A stretch of DNA of 30,298 nt from the IMG/VR virus record IMGVR_UViG_648276648_000002; one strand, 5' to 3'. The DNA comes from a virus. Lineage: Duplodnaviria > Heunggongvirae > Uroviricota > Caudoviricetes. The notes beneath the pieces were generated by a model that was given only the letters and a program-made list of their open reading frames with translations, had not been told where the DNA came from and ran no database searches. The stretch's first letter is position 1; the number at the start of each line of letters is the position of its first letter. Shown here piece by piece: positions 4,712 through 8,008 of the stretch. Made by a program: the position numbers and the translations under genes.

Positions 4712-5338
4712 TTAGAGTTCGTATTGAACTCCTTTGACTACACCAATGATAAGGCAATTACCATTGATAGGGATGTTGGGATACCGAGGATTTAATGGCA
4801 CTAAAAACTTTTGAGGGCCATCGATGACTAATTTTTTTACTGTAGCTTCGTTTGTTCCATCAAGTCGAGCGATGACTATTTTTCCATGACGAGGTTCTGC
4901 ATCTGGATCTACAATCACTGTTGCGCCTTCTGGTATTGTTGGGAGGCCATTAGGGTTAGTCATGGAGTCACCTTTAACCTCTAATGCAAATGAGTTATCA
5001 CCAACCTTTAATGATGTATCTACCCACTTGTCCACTTCACTAAACACTTCTGCTGCCCTGCACTCAGTAAACTGCCCAGCCTGAACCCACGATATTACAG
5101 GAACTCTGCGCATGTTTGTGACGAGTTTGCCTTCAAACTCAGCACCATAAAGAATGTAATCTATTGACGTATTGAAGAACTTCGCTAATTTCGAAAGTGC
5201 CTCCCCACCAGGGGTATTGATGTCTTTCTCCCAGTACCCCACAGCAACGTCGCTTACTCCACAAAATTTACCCAATTCTTTCTGGGACGTTCTGGTAACT
5301 CTTCTCAGAGCTTTTATACGCTGACCAACCGTTTCCAT
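4712..5338 (-). CDS. cI: CI-type prophage repressor (HTH-XRE N-domain, S24 LexA-like peptidase C-domain)
   Basis: 208 aa; HTH QKELGKFCGVSDVAVGYWE; Ala-Gly self-cleavage site (VQAGQF); GDSM serine motif; divergent from cro. Confidence 0.9.
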   Translation of the reverse strand: METVGQRIKALRRVTRTSQKELGKFCGVSDVAVGYWEKDINTPGGEALSKLAKFFNTSIDYILYGAEFEGKLVTNMRRVPVISWVQAGQFTECRAAEVFSEVDKWVDTSLKVGDNSFALEVKGDSMTNPNGLPTIPEGATVIVDPDAEPRHGKIVIARLDGTNEATVKKLVIDGPQKFLVPLNPRYPNIPINGNCLIIGVVKGVQYEL

Positions 5339-5360
5339 AGGAGCACCATTTCTTTAATTG

Positions 5361-5423
5361 CTAAGTAATCTTAGTTTTTATTGACCAAAGATAGATTTGT
5401 AATTAGCATCTAACAAAACTTAG
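5361..5423. promoter_or_regulatory. OR-like operator/promoter region between cI and cro (PR/PRM)
   Basis: Palindromic half-site pairs CTAAGTAATCTTAG (5361-5374) and CTAACAAAACTTAG (5410-5423); TTGACC (5381-5386) as a -35 candidate; GGAGG ribosome-binding site before cro. Confidence 0.6.
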
Positions 5424-5435
5424 TTTGGAGGGCGT

Positions 5436-5636
5436 ATGACAACTGACGATATCGAAAGCTACTTCGGCAGTATTGAGAAAGTTGCTGCTTTTTTCGGCAT
5501 AACAACTGAAGCCGTTTATCAGTGGCGAAACCGTCCGGGCCAGTTAATTCCAAAAGGACGTGCAGCAGAAGCTGCATATAGAACTTGCGGACGGTTGCCA
5601 TTTAAACCTGAGCTTTATGAAAAATCTAATGGATAA
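5436..5636 (+). CDS. cro: Cro-like small HTH regulator (YdaS-like)
   Basis: 66 aa, MTTDDIESYFGSIEKVAAFFGITTEAVYQWRNRPG; GGAGG ribosome-binding site; divergent from cI. Confidence 0.8.
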   Translation: MTTDDIESYFGSIEKVAAFFGITTEAVYQWRNRPGQLIPKGRAAEAAYRTCGRLPFKPELYEKSNG

Positions 5637-6231
5637 ATCGATTAACAGAAACCACAGAACGATGAGGCTAACCGTGGGTAAGCATCACTGGAAAGTAGAA
5701 AAACAGCCTGAGTGGTACGTGAAAGCTGTCAGAAAAACTATCGCAAAGTTGCCGGGTGGTTACGCTGAAGCAGCTGACTGGCTGGATGTAACAGAGAACG
5801 CATTATTTAACCGCCTTCGTGCCGATGGCGATCAGATTTTCCCGCTGGGATGGGCAATGATTTTGCAACGTGCTGGTGGAACTCACTTCATTGCTGACGC
5901 TGTGGCGCAGTCTGCAAATGGCGTCTTTGTGTCTCTTCCTGACGTCGAGGATGTGGACAACGCCGATATTAACCAGCGTCTGCTGGAAGTCATTGAACAG
6001 ATCGGCAGTTATTCAAAACAGATTCGTTCAGCAATCGAAGACGGTGTAGTGGAACCGCATGAGAAGACAGCAATTAACGACGAGCTGTATCTCTCAATTT
6101 CGAAGCTGCAGGAGCATGCAGCACTGGTCTGCAAAATCTTTTGCATTTCAGAAAGTAATGACGCCCGCGAGTGTGCAGCTCCGGGCGTCGTGGCGTCGAT
6201 TGCTTCTGGTTGTGGAGAAACTAACGCATGA
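5629..6231 (+). CDS. CII-like regulatory protein (YdaT/Phage_CP76-like); start codon uncertain
   Basis: ORF 5560-6231 in frame; candidate starts at 5617, 5629, 5662 (ATG) or 5674 (GTG after GAGG). Follows cro in the usual cro-cII order. Confidence 0.55.
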
Positions 6232-6566
6232 ACAGTTTAACAACACACTACCGTCGCTCGCAACTGATTGCGCTTCCTGTACCGGGTGGAAAAGCGAAGG
6301 TGGAATATTGCTATGCAGTGAATGTACCAGGTGACAGGGAAATTGTAACCCACAGCTTTGCAGAGTGGGCTGTGGGGGATTTCAACCGGCAGAAGGAGAC
6401 AGTCCTTTGCGACAAGTTAACCGCTGGTTCAAAGATCACTACGGAGTGCCCGTCAGAGTCATTCGTTGGGAACCGGAAACACAACGGGTTATCTACCTCC
6501 GCGAAGGCTATGAGCATGAGTGCTTCAGTCCGCTCGAACAGTTTCGTCGTAAATTCAGGGAAATAG
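6228..6566 (+). CDS. Small ORF coupled to the cII-like stop (ATGA); C-terminal half low-complexity and overlapped by a better ORF; possibly a frameshifted gene
   Basis: ORF 6228-6566; N-terminal ~60 aa protein-like, remainder Ser/Thr-rich. Confidence 0.3.
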
Positions 6567-6586
6567 AGGTCGGTCATGAGCACTAA
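6407..6586 (+). CDS. Small protein (~59 aa) coupled to the O-like gene start
   Basis: TTG start at 6407 preceded by AAGGAG (6393-6398) inside ORF 6365-6586; sequence [58 protein letters not shown]; stop overlaps the O-like start. Confidence 0.45.
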
Positions 6587-7517
6587 ATTAACCGGCTATG
6601 TATGGGATGGTTGCGCAGCGTCAGGCATGAAATTATCCAGCGTGGCAATTATGGCCCGCCTGGCTGATTTCAGTAATGACGAAGGTGTGTGCTGGCCATC
6701 GATTGAAACCATTGCCCGCCAGATTGGCGCGGGGATGAGTACCGTCAGAACGGCTATCGCACGGCTGGAAGCAGAAGGCTGGTTAACGCGTAAGGCGCGT
6801 CGCCAGGGTAACCGCAATGCGTCGAATGTTTATCAGCTTAACGTTGCGAAGCTTCAGGCAGCGGCATTTTCTCAACTGTCAGATTCTGACCCGTCAAAAT
6901 CTGACGCATCAAAATCTGACCCGTCAAAATTTGATGCGTCGAAATCTGGCAAAAAAGCGGGTTTTCACCCGTCAGAATCTGGCGGGGATCCGTCAGTAAA
7001 ATCAAAACATGATCCGTCAGATAAAAAACCTTCTCGTCCGGACTCTTCGCAACCGGACACGCAGACGGCTGAACAGGATTTTTTAACTCGCCATCCTGAT
7101 GCGGTTGTATTCAGCCCTAAAAAACGCCAGTGGGGGACGCAGGATGATTTGACCTGCGCACAGTGGCTCTGGAAAAAAATCATCGCCCTGTACGAGCAGG
7201 CTGCCGAATGTGACGGCGAGGTGGTTCGTCCCAAAGAACCGAACTGGACAGCCTGGGCAAACGAAATTCGCCTGATGTGTGTGCAGGATGGTCGTACTCA
7301 CAAACAAATCTGCGAGATTTACAGCCGCGTCAGCCGCGATCCGTTCTGGTGCCGTAACGTGCTCAGCCCGTCGAAGCTGCGGGAAAAATGGGATGAGCTT
7401 TCCCTGCGCTTATCGCCGTCCGTCAGCACGTACACAGAAAAACGCGAAGACCCGTACTTCAAAGCCAGTTACGACAATGTGGACTACAGCCAGATCCCGG
7501 CAGGATTCAGGGGGTGA
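6576..7517 (+). CDS. Replication initiator (lambda O-like, HTH N-domain) with internal iteron origin
   Basis: 313 aa; GAGG ribosome-binding site; N-terminal winged-HTH-like region; central repetitive SDSDPSKSDASKSDPSKFDASKS segment encoded by the iterons. Confidence 0.8.
   Translation: MSTKLTGYVWDGCAASGMKLSSVAIMARLADFSNDEGVCWPSIETIARQIGAGMSTVRTAIARLEAEGWLTRKARRQGNRNASNVYQLNVAKLQAAAFSQLSDSDPSKSDASKSDPSKFDASKSGKKAGFHPSESGGDPSVKSKHDPSDKKPSRPDSSQPDTQTAEQDFLTRHPDAVVFSPKKRQWGTQDDLTCAQWLWKKIIALYEQAAECDGEVVRPKEPNWTAWANEIRLMCVQDGRTHKQICEIYSRVSRDPFWCRNVLSPSKLREKWDELSLRLSPSVSTYTEKREDPYFKASYDNVDYSQIPAGFRG
6876..7025. repeat. Iteron array / candidate phage origin inside the initiator gene
   Basis: Repeated CCGTCAAAATCTGAC / GCATCAAAATCTGAC / CCGTCAGAATCTGG-type units, analogous to lambda ori within O. 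Confidence 0.65.
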
Positions 7518-8008
7518 GCATGAGTCTTTTGAATGACGTTCAGAAATTCATTGAAGCCCATCCGGGCTGTACTTCCGGAGACATTGCGGATGCTTTTGCA
7601 GGTTACTCACGGCAGCGCGTTCTGCAGTCAGCAAGCAAGTTACGTCAGAGTGGGCGTGTGGCTCACCGTTGTGAAGGAGATACACACAGACATTTCCCGC
7701 GCCTGACTGAGAGAGCGCAGGATCCGGAACCACAACCAGTTCGTGAAACCAGACCTGTGCGCAATTTCTATGTCGGCACTAACGACCCGCGGGTGATTTT
7801 GTGCCTGACCCGCCAGGCGGAAGAACTGGAGTCCAGGGGCTTATACCGTCGTGCTGCAACGGTGTGGATGGCGGCATTCCGTGAAAGCCACTCCCTGCCA
7901 GAACGAAACAATTTTCTGGCGCGTCGTGAACGGTGTTTACGGAAAAGCAGTAAGCGGGCTGCATCAGGTGAAGAGTGGTATCTCTCAGGGAATTACGTGG
8001 GGGCTTAA
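7514..8008 (+). CDS. PerC-family-like transcriptional regulator with N-terminal winged-helix-like region
   Basis: 164 aa; C-terminal segment LCLTRQAEELESRGLYRRAATVWMAAFRES...RNNFLARRERC resembles the recalled PerC/Pch family. Confidence 0.6.
   Translation: MSMSLLNDVQKFIEAHPGCTSGDIADAFAGYSRQRVLQSASKLRQSGRVAHRCEGDTHRHFPRLTERAQDPEPQPVRETRPVRNFYVGTNDPRVILCLTRQAEELESRGLYRRAATVWMAAFRESHSLPERNNFLARRERCLRKSSKRAASGEEWYLSGNYVGA

Follow-up and report, generated by a model that had tools for sequence, protein, structure and literature searches.

Two overlapping reading frames between a cII-like gene and a replication initiator gene

We examined a 30,298-nt stretch of DNA from the viral record IMGVR_UViG_648276648_000002 (Caudoviricetes; hereafter the window), in which two overlapping open reading frames (ORFs) separate a cII-like regulatory gene from a replication initiator gene, all on the plus strand. 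The upstream ORF (6228 to 6566; ATG at 6228-6230, TAG at 6564-6566) encodes 112 aa and is preceded by a Shine-Dalgarno (SD) motif, GGAG (6214-6217), 10 nt 5′ of its ATG, which overlaps the TGA of the cII-like gene (6229-6231) as ATGA. The downstream ORF (6407 to 6586; TTG at 6407-6409, TAA at 6584-6586) encodes 59 aa in the −1 frame relative to the first, and its SD, AAGGAG (6393-6398), reads directly from the sequence within codons of the upstream ORF, with an 8-nt spacer ahead of the TTG. The overlap spans exactly 160 nt (6407-6566) and encodes residues 61 to 112 of the upstream protein, in the +1 frame of the downstream gene; Ser and Thr make up 29% of these C-terminal 52 residues. An earlier note on this DNA had described the coordinates of the two frames, the coupling of the first ATG to the cII-like stop, the SD, start and length of the second frame, an overlap of about 160 nt and a Ser/Thr-rich end of the first frame, all of which we recovered. 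It had further proposed that the pair was either one gene split by a frameshift or two overlapping small genes. Our analysis upholds the latter part, as each frame has coding signs of its own and the overlap is conserved, but not the former. Overall, we consider it probable that both frames are real genes from a prophage of the e14 kind, namely ymfM and, nested in it, a gene of the DUF4222 family, and that selection keeps the ymfM frame free of stop codons.

The two neighbors had been labeled correctly. The cII-like gene is ymfL (5674 to 6231), identified by matches to Pfam Phage_CP76 and to NCBIfam phage_reg_YmfL (166 bits versus a cutoff of 90) and by the RefSeq annotation of a locus that is 99.8% identical. 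The downstream gene (6576 to 7517) encodes an O-like replication initiator of the HTH_36/DnaD_N type, according to Pfam and RefSeq annotation. The junction with this gene departs from the earlier description, in which the stop of the second frame overlapped the initiator ATG. In fact, the TAA of the DUF4222 gene comes 6 nt after that ATG (6576-6578), so that both ORFs share 11 nt. It is the stop of the first frame that adjoins the initiator SD: the ymfM TAG abuts the motif GAGG (6566-6569; together 6564-6569), 9 nt before the initiator ATG.

For comparison we used 119 related loci, with 86 distinct sequences among them, from Escherichia coli, Shigella, Klebsiella, Citrobacter, Enterobacter, Kluyvera, Kosakonia, Phytobacter, Buttiauxella, and Silvania, together with a Pantoea phage. 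Another 22 loci were added later; a first scan of viral contigs had returned near-identical copies only and added little diversity. The region is common, being present in 2,708 of 5,426 complete E. coli genomes.

Each frame has coding signs of its own

Orthology and synteny identify the upstream ORF (6228-6566) as the ortholog of b1148, the ymfM gene of the E. coli K-12 prophage e14. The 359-nt interval is identical to the e14 locus at 354 of 359 nucleotides, the K-12 ORF likewise encodes 112 aa, and the gene is flanked in both by the same neighbors, with a ymfK-like repressor gene, ymfT, and ymfL upstream and a replication gene downstream. The two loci differ in that the downstream initiator gene is reduced to the fragment oweE in K-12 and is intact in the window. 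The ORF matches phrog_1170 over its full length, and searches of Pfam and NCBIfam returned no match for this frame.

The part of ymfM that lies outside the DUF4222 overlap (6228-6406), which we call the N-module, is the conserved core of the protein. Its ratio of nonsynonymous to synonymous substitution rates (dN/dS) is 0.15 to 0.45 in three sequence types, and among E. coli haplotypes, 8 of its 10 polymorphic sites fall at the third position of its own codons. The SD and start codon are conserved in nearly all lineages despite differing flanks, as GGAGAAACTAACGC-ATGAAC (GGAG-N10-ATGAAC). A profile search of 1.84 billion representative sequences recovered an N-module family of 117 clusters, many members of which are 58 to 67 aa long. 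AlphaFold2 (AF2) predicted three strands and two helices for the N-module, with a predicted local distance difference test score (pLDDT) of 57 to 73; the score of the whole YmfM model is 53, and residues 67 to 112, at a pLDDT below 50, are predicted to be disordered. The ymfM gene would start at the ATG at 6228, coupled to the ymfL stop, and its product would have a core of about 60 residues that is folded and under selection; in some relatives, this core is the entire protein.

We also noted that the N-module profile (residues 13 to 63; about 6264-6416 in the window) gives weak, multistretch matches to the Ig-like DUF7507 repeats of large surface proteins; in one example, the stretch LPVTGGEVIYCFAVTNTGDITLTHH is aligned to a surface protein repeat. 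This resemblance could reflect either remote homology or convergence.

The downstream frame matches the Pfam family DUF4222 (PF13973) at 68.7 bits, above a cutoff of 27 (E = 3e-19), over profile positions 1 to 52 of 53, and it also matches phrog_1343. Between lineages its dN/dS is 0.02 to 0.3, with synonymous divergence (dS) saturated. Within the overlap, each of the 8 polymorphic sites is synonymous in DUF4222 and nonsynonymous in ymfM. Every lineage has a purine-rich SD ahead of the DUF4222 start. The AF2 model (pLDDT 84) shows a compact fold, a small five-stranded barrel of the SH3/Tudor type. Hence, both frames are under purifying selection where this can be measured separately, and DUF4222 would be translated as a conserved small β-barrel protein, with a strong SD and a TTG start of its own located within ymfM.

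The window gene agrees with the rest of PF13973 in its full-length match to the model and in its position directly 5′ of an initiator gene, which is usual for the family. It differs in being almost wholly overlapped by another frame, whereas distant members stand alone and contain stops in the corresponding frame. Stand-alone DUF4222 genes lie directly 5′ of O-like genes in, among others, Serratia phage BZS1, Yersinia phage YeP2, EKP1, and CharmingMan and have 2 to 5 stops in their +1 frame; the exception is YeP2, which has no upstream N-module and in which this frame is mostly open by chance. Near and distant DUF4222 genes alike (including those of loci L124 to L127) were found immediately 5′ of the initiator gene and usually translation-coupled to it, a position that suggests a replication-linked role for this uncharacterized family.

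The two parts also appear as separable units. DUF4222 variants occur behind at least four types of N-module, with the junction conserved, and from these combinations we conclude that the N-module and DUF4222 recombine independently there. A sister lineage of IMG/VR contigs (L144 to L147) keeps the order cII, N-module, DUF4222, O, but its N-module gene (about 1501-1704) encodes only 66 to 67 aa and ends about 20 nt into the DUF4222-like gene (about 1685-1867), the stop of which overlaps the O start as ATGA. Judging from its layout, this lineage likely represents the unextended form of the arrangement.

The ymfM frame is kept open across DUF4222

In the long-overlap arrangement, the ymfM frame is free of stops through the first 160 to 169 nt of DUF4222 in 119 of 119 loci (86 distinct sequences). 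It is also open in 14 further distinct sequences, giving about 100 distinct sequences in all, from more than 10 enterobacterial genera. As a null model, we held the DUF4222 amino acid sequence fixed and resampled synonymous codons with local codon usage. The +1 frame was open in 2 to 8% of such trials (mean, 3.7%). The same null accounted reasonably well for the other frames, predicting an open +2 frame in 1 to 3% (observed in 0 of 35 lineages) and an open antisense −0 frame in 30 to 48% (observed in 24 of 35).

Since relatedness may mimic conservation, we compared sites on one and the same neighbor-joining (NJ) tree, counting changes by parsimony and fitting a two-state maximum-likelihood (ML) model to control fourfold sites. 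A stop arises in the +1 frame only where A or G comes directly after a DUF4222 codon of the form NTA or NTG. Three fourfold sites are always at risk: Val/Leu4-Asn5 (6416-6418, GTT before AAC in the window), Val18-Ile19 (6458-6460, GTC before ATT), and Val28-Ile29 (6488-6490, GTT before ATC). A purine at the third base of any of these codons would create TGA or TAA in ymfM. In 58 distinct sequences (57 for Val28), the three sites carry only T or C, and parsimony places no change between purine and pyrimidine at any of them, although the Val18 site has undergone six changes between T and C on the tree. On the same tree, 14 control fourfold sites of DUF4222 show 2 to 6 purine/pyrimidine changes each, which gives a rank probability of 1/680 for the stop-risk sites. 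The two-state model returned a P of about 1e-8 for the three sites together, and of 7e-3 when the rate was lowered to one quarter of the fitted value. Thus, the ymfM frame is open more often than chance and phylogeny allow.

Codons at which the risk is conditional follow the same pattern. The counts of purine-ending Val16 and of ATA at Ile19 are compatible only with a next codon that starts with C, and Arg2 of DUF4222, immediately after the start codon, is never AGR. GTR-A and CTR-A are not generally avoided in the flanking ORFs, where 52% and 63% of these codons end in a purine. Stand-alone DUF4222 genes use purines at the stop-risk positions (CTG/TTA, GTA, GTG): the codon at the Val4 position is CTG or TTA, the stand-alone copy of phiNP has GTG at the Val18 position, and GTG ATT stands at the position homologous to Val28 in Serratia phage BZS1. 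Where the long ORF has been lost, the cause is not a stop in the tail: loci L142 and L143 have a frameshift upstream, in the N-module, and L121 has a deletion, described below. On the strength of these site comparisons, selection has acted against stop codons in the overlapped part of the ymfM frame.

The best-surviving alternative accepts both genes but holds that the 52-codon tail is a neutral accident, in which the N-module lost its stop and the +1 frame has stayed open by chance and shared ancestry. The sequence and composition of the tail do look unselected, short N-module proteins work in other phages, YeP2 demonstrates that the +1 frame of a DUF4222 gene can be mostly open by chance, and the lineages are not independent because they are related and recombining. 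Against it, a premature stop in the tail occurs in none of the approximately 100 distinct sequences. Fourfold sites elsewhere in DUF4222 are saturated with changes, in contrast to the three stop-risk sites, which show no purine/pyrimidine change even though one of them has changed six times between T and C, and the conditional patterns at Val16 and Ile19 agree with stop avoidance. The tests disfavor this explanation at a P between about 1e-8 and 7e-3, and we regard it as unlikely.

Rejected alternatives: one frameshifted gene, or one gene only

Because DUF4222 is read in the −1 frame relative to ymfM, we tested programmed frameshifting directly. According to this explanation, a programmed −1 ribosomal frameshift, or slippage at a G run, makes a fusion protein of the N-module and DUF4222. 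The arrangement resembles the programmed −1 frameshifting cassettes dnaX and phage tail chaperone G/GT in that the second ORF overlaps the 3′ part of the upstream ORF in the −1 frame, and in the window the DUF4222 frame is open from 6335. Fused proteins are present in databases (P0184, P0217, and P0230), and type D relatives contain a heptamer, G_GGG_GGC, at a place where a slip would be productive. Unlike dnaX and G/GT, the window locus lacks a slippery heptamer, a stimulatory structure, and a conserved open fusion frame, and its downstream ORF has its own SD and start. No X_XXY_YYZ heptamer is present in the ymfM frame of the window, be it near 6395-6410, where the earlier note had suggested to look, or elsewhere, and none is conserved among 14 lineages. 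Folding of 6360-6450 gave a z of 0.24 versus shuffled sequences. In relatives of the Klebsiella type, the mEp390 type, and L039, a stop closes the DUF4222 frame 3 to 18 nt ahead of its start, so that a conserved fusion would have no room. DUF4222 is furnished with its own SD and start everywhere, and a fusion would leave 160 nt of open +1 frame unexplained. We therefore give programmed frameshifting very little credence.

The fused proteins themselves (P0184, P0217, P0230, P0151, P0085, and P0178) each differ in their junction or arise at a G run, and they are rare compared with thousands of normal copies. The window has such a run, G5 at 6374-6378, which is an indel hot spot: variants of it give the N-module-DUF4222 fusion P0184 (14 member sequences) as well as third-frame products of 63 aa (P0182, P0185, and P0196). 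We considered whether phrog_20047, a family of 63-aa proteins, was a natural short YmfM and rejected this, as its database counterparts are third-frame products of G5-run indels. In type D relatives (L015, about 832-838), a G6 run gives the formal −1 slippery heptamer mentioned above, in a productive position, and the fused form P0230 occurs on 44 contigs. The G-run variants may represent real variation, sequencing error, or low-level slippage.

Another possibility is that only DUF4222 is real and that the ymfM frame is a spurious ORF, as annotation by the Prokaryotic Genome Annotation Pipeline (PGAP) implies. PGAP/RefSeq indeed annotates DUF4222 alone in thousands of E. coli genomes, and the ymfM frame lacks a Pfam or NCBIfam match. 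A spurious frame is hard to reconcile with an N-module dN/dS below 0.5, with polymorphism concentrated at third positions, and with conservation of both the SD and the ATG that is coupled to the stop of ymfL; moreover, the family of 117 cluster representatives includes stand-alone genes, and overexpression of the ymfM ORF has a published phenotype. We consider this explanation highly improbable as well.

Finally, that an ancestral N-module-DUF4222 gene was split by a frameshift mutation and is now a decaying pseudogene has next to no likelihood: prophages are places where decay is common and rare single-frame fused variants do exist, but in more than 10 genera, and with four types of N-module, the split arrangement is what is normally found, both parts are still under purifying selection, the genes are separate and adjacent in L144 to L147 with DUF4222 alone in distant phages, and a search of the 119 related loci, the 22 added loci, and protein databases found a single continuous ORF in 0 of the 119 and only sporadic fused variants, each different. 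The idea of one gene split by a frameshift, with uninterrupted homologs in related prophages, was therefore abandoned.

Possible roles of the ymfM tail

We return to the preferred reading, two genes with the ymfM frame selected to stay open, and consider what the tail might do. Each single nucleotide polymorphism in the overlap alters a tail residue. Tail identity between diverged lineages is 0.35 to 0.48, compared with 0.31 to 0.42 ± 0.06 in a null of independently randomized synonymous codons, and the Ser plus Thr content of the tail, given above, is close to the 23 ± 5% of a null in which DUF4222 is read in the +1 frame, composition lying within about 1 standard deviation. Amino acid-level constraint on the second frame of the overlap was not detected, with the dS of DUF4222 saturated. 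By these measures, the comparisons show the amino acid sequence of the tail to be unconstrained.

The position at which the tail ends is fixed. Wherever the downstream gene is of the initiator type, the ymfM stop lies 9 nt before the next ATG, even though DUF4222 ends at a variable distance of 20 to 101 nt beyond the ymfM stop. In the clade of the window, the ymfM frame would thus run past the DUF4222 start for 52 more codons and end at the initiator ribosome-binding site (RBS). We infer that completing translation of the ymfM frame matters, and two explanations appear about equally likely. By terminating at the initiator SD, 9 nt before the ATG, ribosomes could couple initiator translation to that of ymfM; alternatively, YmfM might need a disordered tail of loosely defined composition for its stability or activity. 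The fixed stop and the reading through into Rha- or Ash-type genes described below fit the coupling explanation, and DUF4222 itself often ends too far past the initiator ATG for its stop to serve in this way. In its most specific form, the tail would be a sequence-independent translated bridge, along which ribosomes cross DUF4222 and are released at the initiator RBS. We put this forward as a tentative proposal that is more likely to be wrong than right; if true, the bridge would tie initiator synthesis, and hence prophage replication, to the cII-ymfM message.

Four relatives have a Rha- or Ash-type gene downstream in place of the initiator. There the ymfM-type frame has no stop and reads into that gene (L014, 742-1911; L015, 698-1537; L039, 1349-2503; L128, which is sb41 of phage ST64B, 698-1915), forming one ORF of 280 to 390 codons composed of the N-module, a +1-frame reading of DUF4222, and Rha/Ash. 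PGAP uses an internal start for the Rha/Ash gene, and the ST64B record annotates the long form.

Several observations weigh against two selected genes with a tail that is kept open. The stop-avoidance signal comes mainly from three Val/Leu codons, with conditional patterns at two others, and other constraint on these bases is possible. The NJ tree behind the site tests is approximate because the lineages recombine. Folding around the initiator start revealed no RBS-sequestering structure (z = 0.76), which coupling would favor. Short YmfM-type proteins of 58 to 78 aa exist, and in a prophage of Entomohabitans teleogrylli (L121, 2501-2737), a 122-nt deletion has removed the DUF4222 core and the tail together; the remnant keeps 16 DUF4222 codons, and its 78-aa N-module ORF now terminates at what was the DUF4222 stop and overlaps the start of the initiator gene. 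The short proteins and this deletion together indicate that the tail is not intrinsically needed by the N-module family. Lastly, we found no ribosome profiling or peptide data for the locus in the searchable literature.

Same-strand embedded or overlapping genes are classical in phages, as in lambda Rz/Rz1 and phiX174, and overprinted sequence is typically compositionally odd and disordered. The ymfM/DUF4222 pair resembles these cases in that one strand encodes two proteins in different frames, of which one is constrained and the other is compositionally odd and predicted to be disordered. It differs in that the embedded gene is the older and conserved one, that the overprinted part is a C-terminal extension of the upstream gene, and that this extension is selected to stay open and not for its amino acid sequence. 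The locus is, in this respect, a clean natural case of a frame selected to be open without selection on the encoded sequence, which bears on the origin of overlapping genes and on their detection, as methods based on dN/dS can miss such frames.

Annotation of the locus and the SfiC phenotype

Existing annotations retain one frame or the other. The curated K-12 record lists only the 339-nt b1148, "cell division inhibitor YmfM", and leaves the embedded DUF4222 gene unannotated, and GenBank records of phages mostly list only the 112-aa ORF. By contrast, RefSeq genomes annotated with PGAP, including reannotations of K-12, show a single protein in the interval from ymfL to the initiator gene, the 59-aa DUF4222 protein. 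None of the annotations that we examined keeps both frames. With two annotation traditions each keeping a single frame, every database misses one of two apparently selected genes. Taken singly, both genes were known; that they coexist and that the overlap is selected appears not to have been described before, and our literature searches found no paper describing the ymfM/DUF4222 overlap.

This bears on a published function. Ansari et al. expressed the e14 ymfM ORF from pBAD24, observed filamentation and loss of the Z ring independently of SulA, SlmA, and MinC, and identified ymfM as sfiC, an inhibitor of Z-ring formation; their text makes no mention of a second frame (bioRxiv 10.1101/2020.11.19.390815). 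From the coordinates, we infer that the published pBAD-ymfM insert contains the DUF4222 SD, the TTG start, and 53 of the 59 codons. As the insert carries most of DUF4222, the filamentation is not assigned to one frame, and SfiC filamentation could depend on DUF4222 or on both products. The published assignment thereby leaves the acting product unspecified for a named K-12 gene that was reported to be the long-sought SfiC.

Other features of the region

The immunity and replication genes of this lambdoid prophage, which is of the e14/SfII/SfIV type, occupy positions 4712 to 8008 of the window. A LexA-like repressor gene (4712-5338) lies on the minus strand, followed by a cro-like gene (5436-5636), and a PerC/YfdN gene (7514-8008) lies beyond the initiator gene. 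The order cro, ymfL (cII-like), ymfM, DUF4222, and O-like initiator would correspond to the early right operon of an e14/SfII-like lambdoid prophage.

A 90-aa antisense ORF crosses DUF4222 on the minus strand (6311-6583) and is an annotated coding sequence in some Klebsiella phage records (L004 and L006). We rejected it as a shadow ORF, since it is open in just 24 of 35 lineages, being interrupted in the other 11, against a null expectation of 0.3 to 0.48.

A scan for promoters and terminators found nothing notable inside the overlapping frames. When positions 5300-7700 were scanned with Rfam, the sole match was a spurious one to a microRNA (mir-5880), caused by repeats in the initiator gene. 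These repeats, revealed by a tandem-repeat scan at 6885-6948, comprise four to five 15-nt direct repeats with the consensus TCTGACCCGTCAAAA, or alternatively a 30-nt unit. In sequence and placement they look like the iterons of a phage origin inside the initiator gene; the lambda O gene likewise carries origin iterons within the initiator gene.

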